From contig CAZUXN010000002.1 in NCBI GenBank assembly GCA_964624735.1, positions 1-43,282 on the forward strand: 43,282 nt of DNA. Direction: 5' to 3'. Numbering within the stretch: the first letter of the stretch is position 1; every line of letters begins with the position of its first letter. A program made the translations under genes and the position numbers. Under the pieces are notes generated by a model. The model had not been told where the DNA came from and ran no database searches. It worked only from the letters and a program-made list of their open reading frames with translations. This stretch comes from Candidatus Woesearchaeota archaeon (lineage in GTDB: Archaea; Nanobdellota; Nanobdellia; Pacearchaeales; GW2011-AR1). Shown in pieces: positions 3,674 through 38,769 of the stretch.

Positions 3674-3849
3674 TGTGTTGATAAATATTTATTTTTTATA
3701 AAGGTTTGGGAATTGCGCTAACTCGGAAGATATTTAATTGGGAGATTATTTATTTTATTATGGATTATAATGAAATTTGGAGGCAGATGTTTAGATTGGG
3801 AAGCTTACGCTAAAGCGATAGCTTGCTCAAAAATCTAAAGATTTTTTGG

Positions 3850-5607
3850 ATGGATTATTCAAAGATTTGCAGTGTTTATGCTGCATTAGAAGGAACGAGT
3901 AAGGGATTGGAGAAGACGGATATATTGGCGAAATTTTTAAGGAGGATTCGTGATGAGCCGGAGTTGATTTATCTTTTGCAGGGTCGGGTGTTTGCGGATT
4001 ATGATAATCGGGAATTGGGGATTTCGCATCAATTGATTATTAAGGCGATTGGTCGGGTGGCTGGAATTGGTGAGGATGTTGTTGTTGAGAAGTTTAAGGA
4101 ACTTGGGGATTTGGGGAAAGTTGTCGAGGCTGTTTTGGGAAGCAAAAAAAAACAAAAGGTTTTGTTTAAAGAAAAGTTGAGCGTTGAGAAGGTGATGGAG
4201 AATTTGCGGAAGGTTCCGACTTTTGAGGGGAAAGGGACTGTTGATTTGAAGATTGGGTTGATTGTTGAGTTGTTGCATTCGGCGACGCCGGAGGAAGCGA
4301 GGTATATTGTGCGGACTGTTTTGGGTGATTTGAAGATTGGGGTTGGTTCTGGGATTTTGAGGGACGCGATTGTTGTGTATTGTTTTGAGCCTAAAAATTT
4401 GGAAGACAAAAAGATTTGTGTTAAGGCTGTTCAGGAGGCGTATGATAAGGCGACAGATTTTGCTGAAGTTTTTGCGAAGGCGCGTGATGATTTGCTGGAG
4501 AAGATTAAGTTGGAGCCCGGGAAACCTGTGAAAGTTATGTTGTTTCCGAAGGCGAAGGATGTTGAAGATGCGTTTCGGATTGTTGGTCGGCCGGCGGCGT
4601 TTGAATATAAGTATGATGGGTTTAGAGTTATGGTGAATAAAACAGATGGCAGAGGACAGAGGGCAGAAGACAGGGTTAAGATTTTTACTCGTCGACTTGA
4701 GGAGGTTACTAAGCAGTTTCCTGAGATTGTTGAGTATGTTAATAGTTATGTGAAGGGAGAGAGTTTTATTTTGGATTGTGAGGTTGTTGGGTTTGATGCT
4801 GGGACTGGGAAGTATACGAATTTTCAGGCGATTAGTCAGAGGATTAAACGGAAGCATAGGATTGGTGAAATGATGGCGAAGTTGCCGGTTGAGTTGACAA
4901 TTTTTGATGTGATTTATTATGATGGGATTAGTTTGATTGAGACGGCGTTTAGCGAGAGGCGGGCTTTGATTGAAAAGATTGTTAGTGAGGACGAGAAGAG
5001 GATTGTTTTGGCGAAGCAGATTGTGACTGGCGACGATAAAGTTGTTGAGAAATTTTACGAGGAGGCGTTGAGTGAGAATCAGGAGGGATTGATGGGGAAG
5101 AGTTTGTCGGCGCCGTATAAACCTGGGGCTCGGATTGGTTATGCGGTGAAATTGAAGCCGGAGGATAATGATTTTGATTTGGTGATTATCGGGGCTGAGT
5201 GGGGGACGGGGAAGCGGGCTGGGTGGTTGACGAGTTTTGATGTGGCTTGTCAAAACTCGTCGCAGGTCGCAGGTCGCGATTCGCTGGTCGATGGGGAAGA
5301 TTTGAGCAGCAAAGGGAAGTTGTTGCAGGTTGGGAAAGTGTCGACGGGGTTGAAAGAGAAGCCCGAAGAAGGTTTGAGCTTTAAGGAGATGACTGATATG
5401 TTGGAGAAGTTGGTTGTTGAAGTTAAGGGGCGGAAGATTAAGGTTCGACCGGAGATTGTTGTGACGGTTCAGTATCAGAATGTGCAGAGGTCGCCGACGT
5501 ATTCTTCGGGTTATGCTTTGAGGTTTCCGAGGATTTTGGGGTTGAGGGAGGATAGGGGTGTTTCGGATATTGCGACGCTGGATGAAGTTGAGGAGGAAGC
5601 GGTTTGA
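3850..5607 (+). CDS. lig: ATP-dependent DNA ligase
   Basis: Adenylation motif EYKYDGFRV, and a DNA-binding/adenylation/OB order typical of archaeal Lig. The start is moved to MDYSKI (ATG 3850) rather than the track's upstream codon. Contains two repeat-derived inserts (see repeats). Confidence 0.9.
   Translation: MDYSKICSVYAALEGTSKGLEKTDILAKFLRRIRDEPELIYLLQGRVFADYDNRELGISHQLIIKAIGRVAGIGEDVVVEKFKELGDLGKVVEAVLGSKKKQKVLFKEKLSVEKVMENLRKVPTFEGKGTVDLKIGLIVELLHSATPEEARYIVRTVLGDLKIGVGSGILRDAIVVYCFEPKNLEDKKICVKAVQEAYDKATDFAEVFAKARDDLLEKIKLEPGKPVKVMLFPKAKDVEDAFRIVGRPAAFEYKYDGFRVMVNKTDGRGQRAEDRVKIFTRRLEEVTKQFPEIVEYVNSYVKGESFILDCEVVGFDAGTGKYTNFQAISQRIKRKHRIGEMMAKLPVELTIFDVIYYDGISLIETAFSERRALIEKIVSEDEKRIVLAKQIVTGDDKVVEKFYEEALSENQEGLMGKSLSAPYKPGARIGYAVKLKPEDNDFDLVIIGAEWGTGKRAGWLTSFDVACQNSSQVAGRDSLVDGEDLSSKGKLLQVGKVSTGLKEKPEEGLSFKEMTDMLEKLVVEVKGRKIKVRPEIVVTVQYQNVQRSPTYSSGYALRFPRILGLREDRGVSDIATLDEVEEEAV
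4641..4675. repeat. 7-nt-period array (AACAGAT GGCAGAG GACAGAG GGCAGAA GACAGGG) inside lig
   Basis: Read directly. Encodes ..TDGRGQRAEDR.. just after the KYDGFR motif, where Pyrococcus ligase (recalled: VHKDGDKIIVYSRRLE) is about 7 aa shorter. Confidence 0.7.
5229..5294. repeat. 12-bp perfect fold-back hairpin plus five 7-nt units inside lig
   Basis: GACGAGTTTTGA (5229-5240) / TCAAAACTCGTC (5250-5261) with a 9-nt loop, then TCGCAGG TCGCAGG TCGCGAT TCGCTGG TCGATGG (5260-5294). In frame (..QNSSQVAGRDSLVDGE..). Confidence 0.85.
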
Positions 5608-6507: not shown

Positions 6508-7473
6508 ATGAATGGCGAGGTGTTAATTCTTGCTGACCCGAAGGGGAATGCTTGGGATTTTGCGAAGAGCGTTTATGAGAAGTTGAATTCTAATCATGAG
6601 CGACTTGTGAAGTATCATCTTGGGAAAGTTGAGATTCGGAAGTTTAACGATGGTGAGATTTTTGTGAAGGTGTTGGTTAGTGTTCGGAAGAAGAGTTGTT
6701 TTTTTGTGCATGATTCGTCGATGGCGCCGCAAGATTGGGTTATGTCTTTGGTTGAAGTTAATGATGCGTTGGCTCGGAGTTCGGCTGAGATGATTTACAA
6801 TGTTTTGCCTTATATGAAATATTCGCGGCAGGAAAGGATGACTGAACCTCGGACGCCGATTAGTTCTGGTGTTTTGGCTGAGATGATTGGGTTGAAGTCT
6901 GACGGGGTGATAACTACTGATTTGCATAATCCTGCTATTACTGGGTCTTATAAAATTCCTTTTGATAATTTAAGAGCATATCTGACGATAATAAAATATC
7001 TTCATTATAGGTATCCGGATTTTTTGAAAAATCTTGTGATTGTTGCGCCGGATGTTGGGAGTGCGGAGATGGCAAATTCTTATGCTAAGAGGCTTGGTGG
7101 GAATGTTGCGATTACGAGCAAATCTCGCGAGAGAGCTGGGGTTGTTGGTGAGATGAAAGTTATTGGGGATGTAAGCGGGAAAAATGTTTTGATTGTCGAC
7201 GATATAATCGATACGGCTGGGACGCTTTGTAAAGCGGCTGGGATTTTGAGGTATAAGGGGGCGCTTAATATTTGGGCATGTGCGACTCATGGACTTTTTA
7301 GTGGAGAGGCTTTGGGCAAGTTGGATGCTTCATGTCTTGATAAAATAATAGTCAGTGATTCGATCCCGCAGGGGAGTTTGGGTAAAGTGGAGATTGTTTC
7401 TTTGGTTGATTTGTTTGCTGAGACGATTGGGCGGATTGTTCATGGGCGGAGCGTGAGTGAATTGTTTCGGTGA
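6508..7473 (+). CDS. prs: Ribose-phosphate pyrophosphokinase (PRPP synthetase)
   Basis: PRPP-binding loop VLIVDDIIDTAGT, VIVAPDVGS, N-terminal Prs domain. Start moved to MNGEVLIL (ATG 6508). Confidence 0.85.
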   Translation: MNGEVLILADPKGNAWDFAKSVYEKLNSNHERLVKYHLGKVEIRKFNDGEIFVKVLVSVRKKSCFFVHDSSMAPQDWVMSLVEVNDALARSSAEMIYNVLPYMKYSRQERMTEPRTPISSGVLAEMIGLKSDGVITTDLHNPAITGSYKIPFDNLRAYLTIIKYLHYRYPDFLKNLVIVAPDVGSAEMANSYAKRLGGNVAITSKSRERAGVVGEMKVIGDVSGKNVLIVDDIIDTAGTLCKAAGILRYKGALNIWACATHGLFSGEALGKLDASCLDKIIVSDSIPQGSLGKVEIVSLVDLFAETIGRIVHGRSVSELFR

Positions 7474-7536
7474 AATAATTCACTCAAGGCAGTAGGCAAT
7501 AGGTTGCTTCGCTTGTGGGTAGTAGGTTTGAGATAG

Positions 7537-7563
7537 GGCAACTGTGGTTGCCTGAATATTTTT
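7537..7563 (+). terminator. Hairpin plus T-run downstream of prs
   Basis: GGCAAC-TGTG-GTTGCC (7537-7552) followed by TGAATATTTTT. Confidence 0.35.
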
Positions 7564-10521: not shown

Positions 10522-11328
10522 ATGGAAAAGGGAAAAAAATCGGAAGTCGGAAGTCGGAAGTCGGAAGGAATAATTGGGACGACAAAAAAGACTGAGGTTA
10601 AAGAAGTTAAGAAGCTGGATGATGTTAAAGATAGTCTTGAGAATAAGGCGGCATTGGCAGCACACTCTGGTGTACCATCTGAGGATGGCAAAGCTGAGGG
10701 GAAAAGTAGCTCACGGATTACACAGATTAATACGGATTCTGAAAAAGGAAAATGGAAATCTAAGAAGGACAAAAAAAAGGAAGTTGTTGAGTTGGAGAGG
10801 GAGTATGTTGTGCCGTTGAGGCGTGGTTTTTTGAATGTGCCAAAGCATAAGAGGGCGAAGAAGGCAGTTAAGGTTTTGAAAGAGTTTATGGTTCGACATA
10901 TGCGTGTTCGTGATGGGGATTTGAGAAAAGTGAAGATTGATGGTTATTTGAATAATGAAATTTGGTTTAGGGGGATTAAGAAACCGATGGGGAAAATTAA
11001 AGTCCGGGCTAGGAAGATTGATGGGATTGTTTATGTTGAATTGGCTGAGATTCCTGATGTTGTGAAGTTTGTGAAGTCGCGTGAAGAGAAGCGGAAGTTG
11101 GCAGCTGAGAAAATTAAGCCAAAGAAGGTTAAGGCTGAGAAGGAAGTTGTTGACGAAGATAAAGATAAGGATGGGGTTGATGATAAGAAGGAGGAGGCTG
11201 AGGATAAGAAGGCTGGGGCTGAGAAGGCGGCGAAGGTTGAGAAAGCGGTTTCTAAGGAGATGAAGCATACGGCTCAAGGGAAGCATTTGAAGAAGACGAT
11301 GCCGGTTCGGAAGGCGCTCAAAAAATAA
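10522..11328 (+). CDS. rpl31e: 50S ribosomal protein L31e (eL31) with ~90-aa N-terminal and K/E-rich C-terminal extensions
   Basis: Core EREYVVPLRRGFLNVPKHKRAKKAVKVLKEFMVRHMRV...IWFRGIKKPMGKIKVRA. There is no in-frame ATG between 10522 and the core, so the true start is uncertain (TTG near 10789 is possible). Confidence 0.75.
   Translation: MEKGKKSEVGSRKSEGIIGTTKKTEVKEVKKLDDVKDSLENKAALAAHSGVPSEDGKAEGKSSSRITQINTDSEKGKWKSKKDKKKEVVELEREYVVPLRRGFLNVPKHKRAKKAVKVLKEFMVRHMRVRDGDLRKVKIDGYLNNEIWFRGIKKPMGKIKVRARKIDGIVYVELAEIPDVVKFVKSREEKRKLAAEKIKPKKVKAEKEVVDEDKDKDGVDDKKEEAEDKKAGAEKAAKVEKAVSKEMKHTAQGKHLKKTMPVRKALKK
10540..10567. repeat. Four perfect TCGGAAG units
   Basis: TCGGAAGTCGGAAGTCGGAAGTCGGAAG read directly, 18 nt after the rpl31e ORF start. 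Confidence 0.9.
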
Positions 11329-11345
11329 AGTGGGTTTGTTATTTT

Positions 11346-11445
11346 TTAGAGCGGCTTCGCTTTGTAGAACGCTTCGCTTGTAGAACGGAAAAATTTTAAT
11401 TTTTCCTCGTAGAACGAAAAGACTTTGTCTTTTCTTGTAGAATGA
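11346..11445. repeat. Intergenic array of GTAGAAC heptamers separated by unrelated perfect hairpins
   Basis: GTAGAAC at 11364, 11380 and 11409, GTAGAAT at 11438, TAGAGC at 11347. Intervening GCTTCGC (x2), GGAAAAATT-TT-AATTTTTCC and GAAAAGAC-TTT-GTCTTTTC. Confidence 0.8.
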
Positions 11446-13007: not shown

Positions 13008-13885
13008 AAGATATTAAGGAATTGTTAGATTTTGGCTTGATTAATATTGATAAGCCGGCGGGGCCGACGTCGTTTTCGGTGAGTGAGTTTATTCGGAGGC
13101 AACTTGGATTGTCTAAGACTTCGCATATGGGGACGCTTGACCCGAAGGTGACTGGGGTTTTGCCGATTACTTTGGGGCGGGCTTGTAAGTTGGCGGGATA
13201 TTTTATTAAGCATGATAAGAGTTATATTGGGGTTTTGGAGACGCATCGGGAGTGTGATATTGTTGAGTTGCAGAAGTTGATTGATGAGAATTTTGTTGGG
13301 AAGATTAAGCAAACGCCGCCGCATCGGTCGGCTGTGCTTCGAAAAGAAAGAACACGAGAGGTGTTCTTTTGGAAACTTTTCGAAGCGGGGTGTCGGGATT
13401 CGGGGTGTCGGGATGTCGGTGACTTGGGCAACAGAAGTAAGAGTTTTTTGTTTGAGTGTAAGGTTGAAGGTGGGACTTATATTAGGAAGTTGTGTTCGGA
13501 CTTGGGCGGGATGATTGGTGGGGCACATATGGGGGAATTGCGGAGAACTAAGGCTGGGATTTTTAATGAAGAGAAAATTTATTCGCTTTATGAATTTGAG
13601 AGGGCAGTTGAATCGTGGAAGAATGGGGATGATGGTTTATTGAAGGAAATGATTGTGTCGGCGGATGATGCGATTCGCGAGGTTTTGCCTGTGGTTGAAG
13701 TTGATAAGTCTGCTTTGGCGTCTTTGTATGTTGGTCGACCGTTGCTGAAGTTTAATGTTGTTGGTGGGGTTGATGTTGAGACTGGGGAGGTTTTTGCTTT
13801 GTTTTGTGGAGATGTTTTTGTTGGGGTTTATATGAGGAGTGGTGAGGAAGCTGTTTTTGGGCGTGTTGAGTTTGTGAAGAATTGA
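13004..13885 (+). CDS. cbf5: tRNA/rRNA pseudouridine synthase Cbf5 (TruB family) with PUA domain
   Basis: GLINIDKPAGPTSFSVSEFIRR..SHMGTLDPKVTGVLPI (catalytic Asp), GGTYIRKL, C-terminal PUA-like region. Confidence 0.9.
   Translation: MKDIKELLDFGLINIDKPAGPTSFSVSEFIRRQLGLSKTSHMGTLDPKVTGVLPITLGRACKLAGYFIKHDKSYIGVLETHRECDIVELQKLIDENFVGKIKQTPPHRSAVLRKERTREVFFWKLFEAGCRDSGCRDVGDLGNRSKSFLFECKVEGGTYIRKLCSDLGGMIGGAHMGELRRTKAGIFNEEKIYSLYEFERAVESWKNGDDGLLKEMIVSADDAIREVLPVVEVDKSALASLYVGRPLLKFNVVGGVDVETGEVFALFCGDVFVGVYMRSGEEAVFGRVEFVKN
13337..13428. repeat. 19-bp interrupted fold-back hairpin plus 7/8-nt-period TCGGG array inside cbf5
   Basis: CTTCGAAAAGAAAGAACAC (13337-13355), loop GAGAG, GTGTTCTTT (13361-13369), bulge TGGAAA, CTTTTCGAAG (13376-13385). 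Then CGGGGTG TCGGGAT TCGGGGTG TCGGGAT GTCGGTG ACTTGGG. Encodes ..EAGCRDSGCRDVGDLGN.., absent from M. jannaschii Cbf5 as recalled. Confidence 0.8.
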
Positions 13886-24552: not shown

Positions 24553-24569
24553 CCTAGTCCCAGACTAGG
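24553..24569. other. Perfect 7-bp hairpin between the VR-like and TR-like repeats
   Basis: CCTAGTC-CCA-GACTAGG flanked by GGGG/T-run on the + strand (A-run/CCCC on the minus strand). Confidence 0.6.
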
Positions 24570-30021: not shown

Positions 30022-32211
30022 ATGGTTAAGAAGAATGCGACCTTGATTATTACAGAGAAACCGGCGGCGGCGGAGAAGATAGCGGCGGCTTTGAGTGGGG
30101 CGACTGATGAGAAGATTACGAATAAGGATAAGGTTTCGTATTATGAGTTTTACAAGGGAAGTCGGAGATATATTATTGGATGTGCGGTTGGGCATTTGTT
30201 TGGGATTCAGCAGATTGCGAAGAGGGGGCCGTTTCCTAATTTTGAGGTTGAGTGGAGGGCGTCTTATAATAAGAAGGGTGGGGCTTTTACTGAGAAGTAT
30301 TTGAGAGTTTTGAAAAAGTTGGCGAAGGAATGTGATGAGTTTATTGTTGCAACGGACTTTGATGTCGAGGGAGAGGTGATTGGTTGGAATGTTGTGCGGT
30401 TTGTTTGTGGAAAGAAGGATGCTAAAAGGATGAAGTTTTCTTTGTTGACGAAGGAGGCGTTGGATAAGTCGTTTGAGAATTTGTTGCCGACGCTTAATTG
30501 GGGCGCGGCGATTGCGGGGGAGACTCGACATTATATTGATTGGTTTTATGGGATTAATTTGTCGCGGGGTTTAATGAAGGCGTTGAGCTCGACTGGGACT
30601 TTTAGGATTTTGTCGATTGGTCGGGTTCAGGGGCCGGCGTTGAAGATTGTTGCGGACAGGGAGAAAGAGATTCGGGATTTTGAGTCGGAGCCGTATTGGA
30701 ATGTGTTTTTGCAGGTTCAGGATTCGAAGGGGCAGAGAGTTGAGGTGAAGCATCCGAAGGATATTTTTAAAGAGAGTGAGTTGTTGAAGTTTAAGCATTT
30801 GCAGGGGAAGAAAGGTGTTGCTTCTACGAAGATTAGTGACGATGAAGTTAAGGCGCCTGTTCCTTTTGATTTGACGACGCTGCAGACTGAGGCGTACAAG
30901 AATTGTGGGTTTACTCCGACGCAGACTTTGAAGGCGGCGCAGAATTTGTATTTGGCTGGGGCGATTTCGTATCCGAGGACTTCGAGCCAGAAGTATGATG
31001 CGTCGATTGGGTATGATAAGATTTTGAAGAATTTGAAGAAGTATACGACGGCTGTGAAATATGCGGTGAATTCGAAACCGACCGAGGGGACTAAGGTTGA
31101 CCCGGCGCATCCTGCGATTTATCCTACTGGTGAAGCTAAGAAAATTCCTGAGAGGGATAAGAAAATTTATGATTTGATTGTTAAGCGGTTTATTGCTTGT
31201 TTTTGTGATTCGGCTTTGGTTGAGAATAAGAGGATTAAGGTTGTTGTGAATGGTTTGGATTTTGGTGCGAAGGGAGTGCAAATTAAAGAGAAGGGTTGGA
31301 TGAATGTTTATCCGCATGGGACTAAGGAGTCGAAGGTTCCGACGATGAATGGGGATGTTGATGTTTTGGAGATTCGGACCGAGGAGAAAGAGACGAAACC
31401 GCCAAGAAGATATTCTGCTGCGTCGTTGGTTAAGGAGTTGGAGAAGAGGAATTTGGGGACGAAGGCGACTCGGGCGGCGATTGTTGAGACTTTGTATTCT
31501 CGGGGTTATGTTAGGGAGAAGAGTATTGAGGTTACGGAGTTGGGGATGAGAATGGAAGAAACGCTTGAGAAATATTCGCCGATTATTTTGGATGAGAAGC
31601 TTACTCGAGCTATGACTGAAGAATTAGAGAAGCTCGAGTCGGTATTCGGTATTCGGGGTGTCGGGGTGTCGGAGCTTGATAAGTTGAAGAAAGGTGAGAA
31701 GAAAATTTTGGATGAGGCGAAGGTTGTTGTGACGAAGATTGCCGAGGGGATGAGCGCTAATTTGGATAAGATGGGGAAGTCACTTGCTGATGCGAATGCG
31801 GTTGTTTGGGAGCAGGAGAAGGAGGCGAATACAATGAGCGAGTGTCCAGTTTGTCATAAAGGGAAGTTGAGGGTTATGTATGGGAAAAAATTTGGGAGAT
31901 ATTTTGTTTCGTGTGATGCTTATCCGGAGTGCAAGACGATTTATTCTTTGCCGCCGCGTGGTGCTATGCGCCCCGCGAGAAGACAGACGACAGAGGACAG
32001 AGGACAGAGGACAGAGGAGTTGGAGATGTGTGAGGAGTGTGGGTTTCCGAAGGTTGCGGCGTTCAAGAAAGGTGGGGCGCCTTGGAGGTTTTGTTTTAAT
32101 CCGGCGTGTCCGTCGAATGCGGAGTTGACGAAGAAGAAGGAAGAGTTTAAGGCGAAGATTGCGAGTGGTGAGATTAAGGTTGATGAGGATGGGAAGGTTG
32201 TTGAGAATTAG
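30022..32211 (+). CDS. topA: Type IA DNA topoisomerase
   Basis: TOPRIM (LIITEKPAAAEKIA, ATDFDVEGE), active-site region GAISYPRTSSQ, C-terminal Zn ribbons (CPVCHKG..CDAYPEC, CEECGFP..CFNPAC). Start moved to MVKKNATL. Confidence 0.9.
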   Translation: MVKKNATLIITEKPAAAEKIAAALSGATDEKITNKDKVSYYEFYKGSRRYIIGCAVGHLFGIQQIAKRGPFPNFEVEWRASYNKKGGAFTEKYLRVLKKLAKECDEFIVATDFDVEGEVIGWNVVRFVCGKKDAKRMKFSLLTKEALDKSFENLLPTLNWGAAIAGETRHYIDWFYGINLSRGLMKALSSTGTFRILSIGRVQGPALKIVADREKEIRDFESEPYWNVFLQVQDSKGQRVEVKHPKDIFKESELLKFKHLQGKKGVASTKISDDEVKAPVPFDLTTLQTEAYKNCGFTPTQTLKAAQNLYLAGAISYPRTSSQKYDASIGYDKILKNLKKYTTAVKYAVNSKPTEGTKVDPAHPAIYPTGEAKKIPERDKKIYDLIVKRFIACFCDSALVENKRIKVVVNGLDFGAKGVQIKEKGWMNVYPHGTKESKVPTMNGDVDVLEIRTEEKETKPPRRYSAASLVKELEKRNLGTKATRAAIVETLYSRGYVREKSIEVTELGMRMEETLEKYSPIILDEKLTRAMTEELEKLESVFGIRGVGVSELDKLKKGEKKILDEAKVVVTKIAEGMSANLDKMGKSLADANAVVWEQEKEANTMSECPVCHKGKLRVMYGKKFGRYFVSCDAYPECKTIYSLPPRGAMRPARRQTTEDRGQRTEELEMCEECGFPKVAAFKKGGAPWRFCFNPACPSNAELTKKKEEFKAKIASGEIKVDEDGKVVEN
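31603..31675. repeat. 9-bp inverted repeat plus 7/8-nt-period TCGG array inside topA
   Basis: ACTCGAGCT (31603-31611) / AGCTCGAGT (31631-31639), then TCGGTAT TCGGTAT TCGGGGTG TCGGGGTG TCGGAGC (31639-31675). Encodes ..ESVFGIRGVGVSE.. Confidence 0.75.
31977..32018. repeat. Six 7-nt units GAGAAGA CAGACGA CAGAGGA x4 inside topA
   Basis: 42 nt = 14 codons (..RRQTTEDRGQRTEE..) between two Zn-ribbon modules. The unit is nearly the same as in the lig array at 4641-4675. Confidence 0.85.
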
Positions 32212-32959: not shown

Positions 32960-33708
32960 AATAGTCCGCGTTTTCTTATTCCGGTGTTGATAATTTCGAA
33001 TGCTAATTCTTTGACTGGGAGAGAGCGGTGTTTTTTTAGGATGAGTTTTCTTTTGTTGTTGTAGCCTTTGAGTTCGATTAGGCATTTGGACCAGTATTTT
33101 AGGAGGTCGCCGCCGACCATGGAAACGGAACGCTCTAGCGTTCCGTCGCTATTAGCTATTAGCTGTTTGCTTTTAGGTAAGAATTGGGAGTAGACTTGGT
33201 TTGTTACGATTACTGGGATATTTTGTTTTCTTGCGATTTCGTTTAAGGTTCTTAGTTGTTTTGCAAGTTTTCGGTTTACTTCTGAAATTTTTTCGTTGTT
33301 TTTTGATTGTATCGCTTCGCCGAGTTCGAGTCGGTAGAGCATTGCGATGCTGTCTATTATAATTAATGATATGTTTTCTTTTTTGACGTGTTTAAGCATT
33401 TGGTTGAAGGCTTTTTCTTGTTCTGTGAACGAGGTTGGCTTTAAGAGAAAAATGCTTTGAAGGGCGGCATCGATTTCTTCTTTTGTGCCTTGGTGAATTT
33501 GTTTGAAACGTTCGGTTGAGAATCCACCCTCGGTATCGATGAATATTACTTTGTTTCCTTTTCTGGCTTGGGATGTTGCGACGATGACGCAGAGGTTTGA
33601 TTTGCCTGAGCCGCCGGGGCCGTAGAGGGTCGTGATGATGTCGGTTTCGTAGCCGCCTTGGAGGAAGGTGTTTAGTTCGTATGAGCCGGCTGAGATTTTA
33701 TTGGTCAT
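32956..33708 (-). CDS. radB: RadB-like RecA-superfamily ATPase
   Basis: Walker A LYGPGGSGKSNL, Walker B-like LIIIDS. Start moved to MTNKISAGSYELN (ATG 33708), overlapping the upstream stop. Confidence 0.65.
   Translation of the reverse strand: MTNKISAGSYELNTFLQGGYETDIITTLYGPGGSGKSNLCVIVATSQARKGNKVIFIDTEGGFSTERFKQIHQGTKEEIDAALQSIFLLKPTSFTEQEKAFNQMLKHVKKENISLIIIDSIAMLYRLELGEAIQSKNNEKISEVNRKLAKQLRTLNEIARKQNIPVIVTNQVYSQFLPKSKQLIANSDGTLERSVSMVGGDLLKYWSKCLIELKGYNNKRKLILKKHRSLPVKELAFEIINTGIRKRGLF
33127..33179. repeat. 7-bp perfect hairpin plus five 7-nt units inside radB-like gene (antisense to the gene)
   Basis: GGAACGC-TCTA-GCGTTCC (33127-33144), then GTCGCTA TTAGCTA TTAGCTG TTTGCTT TTAGGTA (33145-33179). 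Encodes ..KQLIANSDGTLERSVS.. Confidence 0.8.
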
Positions 33709-38172: not shown

Positions 38173-38769
38173 TTAGTTTTGAAATTGTAGGATTAACAAT
38201 TCTTCCATAAATATTTTTTTCTTGGCGACGATTTTTGGGTTGTATTTTTTTATTCTGTTTATTGGGGTTAGGGTTGAGATTAGGAGGAATATTTTGCCGT
38301 TTTTGGTTAAATGTTTTTTTGCTTGTCTTAGGAATTTGATTGAAATTTCGTCGCCGTGTTTGCCGCCGGTTGTTGCAAGTTGTGAATCTTTTGGTTCTTT
38401 TTTATCGAAGGGGAGATAGGGAGCGTTGAATACTATCAAATCGAAACGATTTGATGTTGTTGGTTTTTGGTTTTTGGTTGTTGGTAATGGAATGTTTTTG
38501 AATAAGTTGGATTTTATTGCTTTGAATCCTTTTTGTTTTAGGAGTTTTACCGATTTTAGGTTGATGTCTATTGGGGTTATATTTTTTTTGTTTAGGAATT
38601 TTGAGGCTGTTTCTGATAGGATACCTGAGCCAGTGCCCATGTCTAACATTTTTATTGAAGATAAAAATGTGGGTGTTGGGTAGTGGGTGTTGGGTTGTAG
38701 GCTTTTGAGATATTTTTTTAGAAAGTTCGCGAAGAAGTATGAGTCTTCGGCTGTTTGATAAATTTCCAT
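38173..38769 (-). CDS. HemK/PrmC (Mtq2)-like SAM-dependent methyltransferase
   Basis: SAM motif LDMGTGSGIL and FNAPY (NPPY variant). Confidence 0.7.
   Translation of the reverse strand: MEIYQTAEDSYFFANFLKKYLKSLQPNTHYPTPTFLSSIKMLDMGTGSGILSETASKFLNKKNITPIDINLKSVKLLKQKGFKAIKSNLFKNIPLPTTKNQKPTTSNRFDLIVFNAPYLPFDKKEPKDSQLATTGGKHGDEISIKFLRQAKKHLTKNGKIFLLISTLTPINRIKKYNPKIVAKKKIFMEELLILQFQN
38435..38490. repeat. 9-bp perfect hairpin plus five 7-nt units inside the methyltransferase gene (antisense to the gene)
   Basis: ATCAAATCG-AAA-CGATTTGAT (38435-38455), then GTTGTTG GTTTTTG GTTTTTG GTTGTTG GTAATGG (38456-38490). Encodes ..PLPTTKNQKPTTSNRFD.. Confidence 0.85.

Follow-up and report, generated by a model that had tools for sequence, protein, structure and literature searches.

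How does a perfect palindrome, continued by a short tandem array, come to lie within the reading frame of a conserved DNA ligase? The question is raised by a stretch of 43,282 nucleotides (nt) from a Candidatus Woesearchaeota archaeon (GenBank assembly GCA_964624735.1, contig CAZUXN010000002.1, forward strand), called the window below, in which the gene for an ATP-dependent DNA ligase occupies positions 3850-5607 of the + strand. A first, sequence-only reading had noted that a segment of this gene is repeated as its exact reverse complement 9 nt further on and then runs straight into TCGC-type heptamers, and had proposed that the second arm was copied from the host's own sequence by a fold-back (template switch) rather than imported. 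The answer that we favour, with some reserve, is that a template switch during replication was followed by reiterative slippage, that the product was tolerated in a permissive loop of the protein, and that it belongs to a lineage-wide class of strand-oriented insertions.

A hairpin and a heptamer array in a loop of the ligase

The inverted repeat is perfect over 12 nt: GACGAGTTTTGA (5229-5240) returns as its reverse complement, TCAAAACTCGTC, at 5250-5261, and the 9-nt loop between them (5241-5249) holds the codons for V-A-C. The second arm passes directly into the heptamers, and the initial observation is thus confirmed. In the following, related loci carry L numbers and proteins P numbers. 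The 5′ arm, which encodes L-T-S-F-D, is native coding sequence, since L015, L106 and L098, which are devoid of the insert, share its codons: TTG ACG AGT TTT GAT is present in all three, and the 3′ arm is absent from them. The 3′ arm is composite. Its first part, TCAAAAC, shares bases with the Cys, Arg-to-Gln and Asn codons of the native gene, and its TCGTC end is inserted. That the Asn codon (AAC) is native as well is probable, given that P0016 and other relatives devoid of the insert have C-R-N-D-G at this place.

The heptamer array (5260-5294) was read as five units, TCGCAGG (5260-5266), TCGCAGG (5267-5273), TCGCGAT (5274-5280), TCGCTGG (5281-5287) and TCGATGG (5288-5294), the first of which shares 2 nt with the end of the 3′ arm. 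Tandem Repeats Finder returned 2.7 perfect copies only (5259-5277), and units 3 to 5 are degenerate, with 4/7, 6/7 and 5/7 matches. The five-unit reading was adopted because, at the homologous position, five units are also present in L082, where they are degenerate, and in L002, where they are near-perfect copies of TCGGTGG. Behind the array comes a tail, GAAGATTTGAGCAGC (5295-5309, encoding E-D-L-S-S), whose homologue in L082 and L167 is GAAGATTTGAGCAAC and which is also akin to the tail GA(C/G)TTGGGYAAC found in L002 and L109.

Among stems of at least 12 bp with loops of 3 to 12 nt, the ligase hairpin is the sole perfect case in the window; 200 second-order Markov shuffles produced a mean of 0.010 such stems, and 1% of the shuffles had any. 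Folded as single-stranded DNA it reaches −16.5 kcal/mol (z = −4.4 versus shuffles). In relatives with D-I-S/A-C codons (L002, L082), folding pairs the loop stretch itself, giving 15-bp arms and a 3-nt loop. The Arg codon CGA, nearly invariant in relatives, is replaced in the window by CAA (Gln); the change removes the sole stem mismatch of the relatives, so that the perfect stem grows from 9 bp to 12 bp. No second copy of the insert, allowing up to 3 mismatches, was found elsewhere in the window.

The reading frame opens at 3823, the likely start being the methionine codon at 3850, and the 585-residue product is 100% identical to P0001. It is a three-domain ligase of the archaeal/eukaryotic Lig1 type (DNA-binding domain, PF04675, E = 5e-41; adenylation domain, PF01068, 2e-48; OB-fold domain, PF04679, 2.5e-9; all above the curated Pfam cut-offs). 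It aligned full-length to the solved ligases 2cfm, 3rr5 and 2hiv (E = 4e-110 with 2cfm of P. furiosus), and end to end with the Pyrococcus/Thermococcus structures 2cfm, 3rr5 and 9dfa (E about 1e-110). Motif I, KxDG, is found in the translation as FEYKYDGFR, and K254, Y255, D256 and G257 are invariant in 46 relatives.

The size of the insert was deduced from the distance between the GWLT and GKVSTG motifs. This distance is 15-16 residues in 117 of 131 related loci, drawn from genome and metagenome collections (the relatives are metagenome-assembled genomes labelled Pacearchaeota, Woesearchaeota or Nanoarchaeota), and 33 in the window, so that the insert amounts to some 18 codons. It lies roughly at 5253-5306, in frame, and reads N-S-S-Q-V-A-G-R-D-S-L-V-D-G-E-D-L-S, with boundaries uncertain by 1-2 codons. 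The insert of about 20 residues previously announced in front of GKLLQVGKVSTG is thus real, but slightly shorter, as its Gln is a substituted native Arg and its Asn is probably native. Against solved ligases, the segment QNSSQVAGRDSLVDGEDLSS stands opposite a 16-residue gap, in the turn between two OB-domain strands (...GAYDPETGEFLEVGKVGSG in P. furiosus). Structural alignments therefore place the insert in the turn of a β-hairpin, as expected of the surface loop that had been suggested; on exposure itself the AlphaFold2 model, built on a 46-sequence alignment, is too poor to speak (mean predicted local distance difference test score, pLDDT, of 56.6; insert between strands E460-468 and E491-498 with pLDDT below 50), and it is likewise too weak for claims on DNA contact.

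This loop is permissive, because at the identical position L027 (4406-5035) and the protein P0076 accommodate, in frame, a heptamer array (TCGGAAT twice, then TCGGGGT three times) followed by a whole serine-hydrolase domain of 195 residues (PF06821), whose third-codon skew equals that of the rest of the gene. By itself, the insert of the window is a tolerated loop insertion without demonstrated function. A second array in the same gene (4642-4673, + strand), made of 4.6 copies of an ACAGAGG-like unit, adds some 6 residues (RGQRAE) after VMVNK and has no hairpin.

Since a length of 7 nt is not divisible by 3, and L002 carries five perfect units, the array might be a contingency (phase-variation) locus switching the ligase on and off, or the whole insert might be skipped by the ribosome; a hairpin with about 50 nt does resemble the coding gap of T4 gene 60. 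We give this little credence. All of the site-B inserts that were examined, at least 14 (site B being that of the present insert), have lengths that are multiples of 3 and are free of stop codons; in every lineage examined the frame stays open and in register through the insert, with no interruption of the kind that translational bypass (T4 gene 60, mitochondrial byps) has to skip. The near-identical L069, L081 and L147 have equal array copy numbers, the array of the window is degenerate with its 2.7 perfect copies, and the ligase would be an essential, single-copy replicative gene.

Homologous inserts in relatives and the origin of the 3′ arm

Loops of 24-35 residues were found in 17 of 184 non-redundant close homologues (at least 70% identity). 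The DNA of 14 insert-bearers followed a common plan, with the codons for T-S-F-D-(I/V)-(S/A)-C-R, the complementary bases, a tandem array and often a GA(C/T/G)TTG(G/A)G(C/T)AAC tail. L082, whose protein (P0004) is 82% identical to that of the window, has a homologous insert of equal length, with a 15-nt arm containing one mismatch and five degenerate heptamers. In L002 the same hairpin is followed by five copies of TCGGTGG. Elsewhere the array consists of G-run octamers, GGGGTTTC repeated 4 times in L109 and TTCGGGGG repeated 4.6 times in L167, or of GTGTGGGG in L107 and GACAGAT in L069. Because lineages share the hairpin end and differ in the array, the former is conserved and the latter turns over. 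No relative showed the segment as an ancestral, non-repetitive sequence, which had been proposed as the observation that would contradict a fold-back copy: it is either absent or likewise palindromic and repetitive.

The recurrence of the insert also bears on a technical explanation, namely an inverted chimera produced by multiple-displacement amplification or another assembly artefact. Fold-back chimeras are a known product of amplification. The homologous insert with its hairpin nevertheless recurs, at 70-83% protein identity, in samples and assemblies of independent origin (L082, L002, L109, L107, L162-L167), an identical protein is recorded by NCBI and by JGI, and the frame is preserved, so that an artefact appears extremely improbable.

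Gain, loss and exchange were then visible in the phylogeny (neighbour-joining tree with nearest-neighbour bootstraps). Compared outside the loop, 9 of the 17 ligases with an insert have as nearest relative one that is devoid of it, with bootstraps of at least 96%; P0090, for instance, differs by 7.7% from the insert-less P0115 and by 16.7% from any other insert-bearing sequence. Other ligases are mosaic. P0005 and P0006 are 92.5% identical in the 120 residues flanking the insert and 79.7% elsewhere, while P0005 and its overall nearest relative, P0011, give 79.2% near the insert and 90.8% elsewhere; the window and P0004 give 95.0% in the 120 residues around the insert and 81.6% elsewhere. Such patterns of identity indicate homologous recombination between related archaeal lineages. 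The insert is gained or lost often and is in part moved by recombination. A single ancient gain with vertical descent was rejected by the nearest-neighbour bootstraps, and purely independent gains were rejected as well, as homologous inserts sit in recombinant flanks. The other site-B inserts (L027; L003 and L097) are different in kind and must be separate events. The event seen in the window is old, being common to L082/P0004, and one of many; it is not private to this genome.

Arrays are found at three sites (A, B and C) of the relatives' ligase genes, with units that differ by lineage within one site. Site A carries 4.6 perfect copies of ACAGAGG in L069, L081 and L147, and 4.9 copies of GTCGGGA in L106; the same L106 has five copies of TCGGAGG at site C.

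If the 3′ arm is a copy of the flank, its first inserted bases should follow the local codons. A flank reading ACG AGT is accompanied by the inserted bases AAC TCG T in the window, L082, L002, L107 and L162, and the same bases are found beside ACG AGC (1 mismatch) in L109 and L166. With ACG TCA in the flank, L163 has AGG ACG T; with ACG TCT, L167 has AAT ACG T; and with ACC TCA, L003 has CGA GGT (one indel). The inserts of L162 and L163 are clearly homologous and yet show concerted triplet differences on both arms, which is the signature of a template switch. Over a 12-sequence alignment, 82% of the cells pair between arms, versus 28-44% when the partner is slid. An apparent covariation of ACC (Thr) with GGT in L164 and L069 was dropped, as it needs a 1-nt register shift. 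Taken with the native 5′ arm, these flank-tracking bases make a fold-back origin of the ligase 3′ arm well supported, though probably not as an independent event in every lineage. The initial proposal, a copy of host sequence and not an import, is therefore supported for this arm; its reach along the insert is considered with the mechanism.

The same pairing could be read as a sign of selection on a structural element, a hairpin in the mRNA or in single-stranded DNA, perhaps with a G-rich array, acting in the pausing of translation between folding units, in protein binding or as a replication signal. The stem is conserved over 12 lineages with some double-sided changes, folding is strong in five lineages (z of −3.7 to −5.0), and the arrays of L109 and L167 are G-quadruplex-like. 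Such an element is absent from most relatives, however, and its presence flips among very close ones, as in the pair P0090/P0115; its outer stem is broken in three lineages, and the hairpins beside other arrays, described below, are unrelated and made from nearby coding sequence. Moreover, template switching creates and repairs perfect stems in single events and so yields compensatory changes of its own (PMC8794818). Selection for a structure is for these reasons quite unlikely to be the explanation.

Arrays and hairpins at other loci, and their strand polarity

Heptamer arrays are not confined to the ligase. Counting arrays of at least 2.5 copies, we found 13 of period 7 in the window versus 0.92 +/− 0.96 in shuffles (maximum 5), about a 14-fold excess, and 5 of period 8 versus 0.74 expected. 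At least 11 of 16 arrays of the window lie within open reading frames (ORFs) as in-frame inserts. At least 10 different units are used over the 43 kb, and ACAGAGG, the TCGGNNN family and TAGCTAT recur between genes. Array length is narrowly distributed (median 31.5 nt, interquartile range 29-34; median 4.35 copies). In the relatives' loci, array density is 2.9 per 10 kb where the GC skew is at least 0.4, and 0.16-0.63 per 10 kb at lower skew; the enrichment in heptamers is specific to the lineage.

Further arrays of the window are given here in + strand coordinates. The topoisomerase IA gene has two, one (31639-31672) formed of two copies of TCGGTAT plus 2.5 copies of TCGGGGTG, with the peptide SVFGIRGVGVSE, and the other (31978-32018) of 5.9 copies of ACAGAGG, the unit of ligase site A. 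An L31e-like gene carries four perfect copies of TCGGAAG in its N-terminal extension (10540-10567). Around the stop codon of this last gene, at 11320-11442, a 9-bp AT-rich hairpin is followed by intergenic 16-nt and 29-nt tandem repeats (GCTTCGCTTTGTAGAAC...). G/T-rich, telomere-like arrays were noted in relatives: 8 copies of TTGGGG/TTTGGGG in L002 (216-269), TTAGGGG in L104 (648-666) and TTAGGGA in L111 (6843-6861), of which at least the last stands directly 3′ of a hairpin.

The adjacency of hairpin and array was measured on 60 non-redundant arrays from high-skew sequence, a hairpin being defined by at least 9 matches and at most 1 mismatch. In 13 of them (22%) the array starts no more than 3 nt from the end of a hairpin's 3′ arm, versus 0.33% at random positions, and only 1 of the 60 has one on the other side. 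Conversely, the window holds 7 perfect hairpins with stems of at least 9 bp, versus 1.57 expected, and 6 of the 7 are followed by tandem repeats within 0-16 nt. The hairpins next to arrays have unrelated, locus-specific sequences, and the arm far from the array is native wherever this could be judged, as at site C of the L069 ligase, in the last codons of the ribose-phosphate pyrophosphokinase gene and in the F-D-L-I codons of a methyltransferase gene. A plan of native arm, loop, inserted arm and array, with entirely different arm sequences, is therefore found at other loci, and the fold-back reading fits these as well.

One of these modules lies in the gene for the pseudouridine synthase Cbf5 (13347-13432, + strand). 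A 9-bp hairpin (13347-13369) is followed, 16 nt on, by an array of octamers and heptamers (13386-13419) and by the tail TCGGTGACTTGGGCAAC; alignment to 2apo proved that array and tail are a 15-residue insert in a β-hairpin loop. At the end of the ribose-phosphate pyrophosphokinase gene (7455-7545, + strand), the 5′ arm GAGTGAATT is made of the last codons, the 3′ arm AATTCACTC comes after the stop, and the module continues with degenerate heptamers and a conserved GGGCAAC-TGTG-GTTGCC hairpin. The orthologous loci of L002 (4480-4580) and L164 (4225-4320) follow the same scheme with each genome's own last codons as 5′ arm; in the three genomes an array of about 30 nt, its unit different in each, precedes a GGGCAAC-TNTG-GTTGCC hairpin and a T-run.

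Three further modules, given here in + strand order, lie in genes of the − strand. In a RadB-like gene (33125-33176) the 9-bp hairpin ACGGAACGC-TCTA-GCGTTCCGT is directly followed by a GCTATTA array. A methyltransferase gene has two, a 9-bp hairpin ATCAAATCG-AAA-CGATTTGAT running directly into a GTTGTTG/GTTTTTG array (38435-38485), with the native F-D-L-I as left arm, and a 10-bp hairpin running directly into a GGGTGTT array (38646-38695). Alignments of the RadB-like and methyltransferase proteins with PDB entries were weak or truncated, so that the arrays of these two genes are putative insertions.

These facts also serve to weigh the most ordinary explanation, an ancestral low-complexity loop drifting in length, with palindrome and heptamers present by coincidence. 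The length of the β-turn does vary among solved ligases, and distant relatives have loops of 17-19 residues. Coincidence would have to account, however, for a perfect 12-bp hairpin expected about 0.01 times per window, for the 14-fold enrichment in period-7 arrays, for hairpins abutting 13 of 60 arrays, and for the covariation of arm and flank, in a family where most members keep a fixed loop of 15-16 residues. We consider it very unlikely.

The window is strongly asymmetric in composition. From about 2.4 kb onwards the GC skew of the + strand is +0.2 to +0.55, and at 1-2300 it is of opposite sign; at third codon positions it is +0.76 to +0.93 in genes of the + strand and, on the coding strand, −0.55 to −0.79 in those of the − strand. 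The asymmetry thus follows the chromosome or replication strand and not the transcribed strand. A database survey (PMC8941118) gives about 2.5% for the usual bacterial GC skew. In relatives the skew of the ligase gene ranges from −0.03 to +0.59, so that extreme skew is specific to the clade, one of Pacearchaeota/Woesearchaeota-like DPANN archaea. Within 1800-2612, the sign changes at about 2300-2500, at the cumulative minimum and beside an AT-rich stretch (GC 0.24), some 1.4 kb upstream of the ligase gene; this switch is a candidate replication origin. At 2487-2612 a search with Rfam gave a 126-nt tRNA, probably intron-containing, that ARAGORN had missed.

The order of hairpin and array is polar with respect to this skew. 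Where the local skew is at least 0.1, 12 hairpins lie upstream of arrays and none downstream; where it is below −0.1, none lies upstream and 2 downstream, in a set of six AT-rich arrays. The modules at 33125-33176 and 38435-38485 keep the + strand order of hairpin then array in spite of their − strand genes, the native arm being the left one. The order therefore tracks the chromosome strand, the hairpin lying 5′ of the array as read along the G-rich strand in genes of either orientation, which points to a process linked to replication.

The tails and certain shared arrays raise another possibility, namely that array and tail form a short mobile or ectopically templated cassette, inserted ready-made by copy and paste, only the junction at the 3′ arm being local. 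The tail TCGGTGACTTGGGCAAC of Cbf5 matches that of the L002 ligase insert at 16 of 17 positions. Of 14 occurrences of TTGGGYAAC in 1.9 Mb, 4 come directly after arrays (Cbf5 of the window, the ligases of L002 and L109, and one intergenic site), and GGGYAAY was seen 7 times in or after arrays versus 0.42 expected. A 29-nt composite array, TTCGGTATTCGGGGTGTCGGGGTGTCGGA, is identical in the topoisomerase IA gene of the window and in the L162 ligase insert; the units ACAGAGG and TCGGNNN are shared between different genes, array length is nearly constant, and an array stands at the 5′ junction of the whole-domain insertion of L027. Yet neither the window nor about 1 Mb of relatives' loci yielded a donor, a master copy or a transposase-like gene. 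Close relatives carry different units at orthologous sites, and so do different lineages at ligase sites A, B and C, which local turnover explains better; allelic recombination can account for the ligase cases. When viral contigs were scanned for (TCGGGGTG)2.5, 7 loci were obtained, all in unrelated high-GC contigs with intergenic arrays; this unit therefore arises convergently, and nothing more is shown by these viral cases. When the motifs of the ligase insert tail and of its 5′ junction were searched in the relatives' loci, they were found at the ligase site only. On balance a ready-made cassette seems unlikely, but the recurrent tail, the 29-nt identity and the fixed unit and length keep it in the discussion, and they also motivate the thought of a dedicated activity considered below.

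Proposed mechanism and comparison with known systems

We infer replication as the occasion of these events and slippage as the source of the arrays. In the ligase, the native S-F-D-(I/V)-(S/A)-C-R-N codons would have provided, if the Asn is native, a pre-existing quasi-palindromic seed of 10 bp (GTTTTGACAT / ATGTCGAAAC in relatives). The nascent 3′ end probably folded back on this seed during replication and copied the upstream GACGA as TCGTC, an intramolecular switch that would lengthen the stem. Before the return to the template, a heptamer run of about 35 nt and a short tail would have been added, likeliest by reiterative slippage at the base of the hairpin, and the insert, once translated, would have been tolerated in the permissive loop. 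Its later fate includes divergence, re-templating in some lineages, repeated loss and gain, and transfer between related lineages by homologous recombination. The polarity could be obtained in two ways: either fold-back of the nascent leading strand is followed by stuttering, or the synthesis of Okazaki fragments is arrested at a hairpin base in the exposed, G-rich template of the lagging strand, the last 7-8 nt being then copied anew.

Several observations weigh against this scheme. The fold-back accounts for the first 5-9 inserted bases only, and not for the heptamers or the tail. The covariation, on 12 sequences, is modest, as 15 of 500 shuffles reach the observed pairing and 3 pairs have double changes; nor is complementarity universal, since in L164, L069 and L165 the 3′ arm is of AGT type and the neighbouring Ser codon is TCG. 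A hairpin is lacking beside about 70-78% of arrays, the second ligase array (4642-4673) among them. Simple slippage does not account for the narrow distribution of array length around 31.5 nt, nor does it explain the recurrent TTGGGYAAC / TTGGGCAAC tail behind arrays of unrelated genes or the 29-nt identity between topoisomerase IA and the L162 ligase. Finally, the direction of replication is taken from skew only, without a complete genome, and arrays in negative skew are few (n = 6).

Part of these difficulties would be lifted if a dedicated activity, oriented by the replication strand, added G/T-rich heptamers directly 3′ of hairpins, in tracts of a fixed length near 32 nt that often finish with TTGGGCAAC. 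This proposal is a tentative one, and we hold it to be rather doubtful. The agent may be a replicative polymerase or primase that stalls and reiterates at a hairpin of the lagging-strand template, or it may work by an RNA-templated, telomerase-like addition; such tracts may also serve as junction filler for insertions, up to the whole domain inserted in the ligase loop. If true, the activity would amount to an undescribed mutational or repair pathway that remodels essential proteins and is possibly tied to extreme skew.

Elsewhere in the window, at 24065-24569 of the − strand, a 122-residue ORF is immediately preceded by an RT-16 RNA motif (RF03019, 83.8 bits); this ORF has a far sub-threshold match (E = 0.002) to the C-terminal part of a group II intron reverse transcriptase/maturase; two tandem arrays are found just downstream of this region (23986-24060). 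As regards a reverse transcriptase that would template the repeats, no full gene for such an enzyme was recognised near the RT-16 motif, and there was no sign of an active enzyme.

Among known systems, the closest is the quasi-palindrome or fold-back template-switch framework, which is said to be that of the Ripley model and of Loytynoja and Goldman in 2017. The ligase hairpin is a textbook product of a template switch. As in the template-switch mutations described by Monttinen and Loytynoja (2022, PMC8794818), a reverse-complement copy makes or perfects a stem in one event, and an insertion extends the stem; clustered changes that keep the arms complementary may be a further likeness, as they are seen in L163, L167 and L003 relative to the AGT-type lineages, though not in L164, L069 and L165. 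The reverse complement also lies within tens of bases of its source (12 nt at a distance of 9 nt in the window, and 14/15-nt arms in L002 and L082). Unlike those mutations, the present ones continue into a heptamer array of about 35 nt and a tail that are not copied from nearby sequence, and they are frequent, of fixed polarity relative to the chromosome strand, and placed inside essential archaeal coding genes.

Rickettsia palindromic elements are self-contained units of 100-150 bp with a family consensus, found in frame in housekeeping genes. They share with our inserts the tolerance of conserved proteins for short palindromic in-frame insertions in their surface loops and the scattering over many genes. 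Contrary to these elements, to repetitive extragenic palindromes (REP) and to miniature inverted-repeat transposable elements (MITE), the palindrome is here half native and different at every locus, the insert is of about 54 nt, and a consensus is limited to the short tail. Plasmodium falciparum, with a genome of extreme composition, has low-complexity, slippage-derived in-frame inserts in loops of housekeeping proteins; these differ from ours by their AT-richness and their homopolymer or triplet repeats, and are devoid of hairpin and strand polarity.

An in vitro reaction provides a biochemical lead. According to its citation in PMC13061963, Ogata and Miura (2000) described the elongation of tandem repeats through a hairpin-coil mechanism by an archaeal family-B DNA polymerase. 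As cited, the reaction has in common with our arrays hairpin-forming ends tied to the polymerase-driven growth of short tandem repeats, with an archaeal enzyme. It is distinct in being a high-temperature, template-free reaction yielding long arrays of palindromic units, and it is a lead only, with no tie to these organisms.

A search of the accessible literature returned no paper on skew or tandem repeats in these archaea, nor a description of the present combination, in which a local hairpin abuts a heptamer tract of fixed length, with strand polarity, in essential genes of a DPANN clade with extreme skew. An excess of heptamers in prokaryotes, many bacteria among them, is reported without explanation in PMC4692102, which also cites a 2007 survey to this effect. 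The families described there, the cyanobacterial short tandemly repeated repetitive sequences (STRR) and the GGGNATC repeats of Xanthomonas and Nostoc, have one consensus unit, show a preference for about four units and avoid coding strands. The arrays of the window resemble them by their 7-nt, G-rich units, by a genome-wide excess, by a number of units close to four (median 4.35), and by some copies lying just past gene ends. They depart from them in using many units, in residing for at least 11 of 16 within ORFs, in abutting in many cases a local hairpin, and in their DPANN archaeal hosts. Hairpins and tracts of about 32 nt are found in genes of replication, recombination, translation and RNA modification (ligase, topoisomerase IA, RadB, Cbf5, L31e, methyltransferase). 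They offer a natural system in which to study the coupling of template switching and repeat formation to archaeal replication, the ways in which conserved proteins acquire new stretches of peptide or even entire domains, and the reason why, as in the bacterial families, seven nucleotides is a favoured repeat length in prokaryotes.

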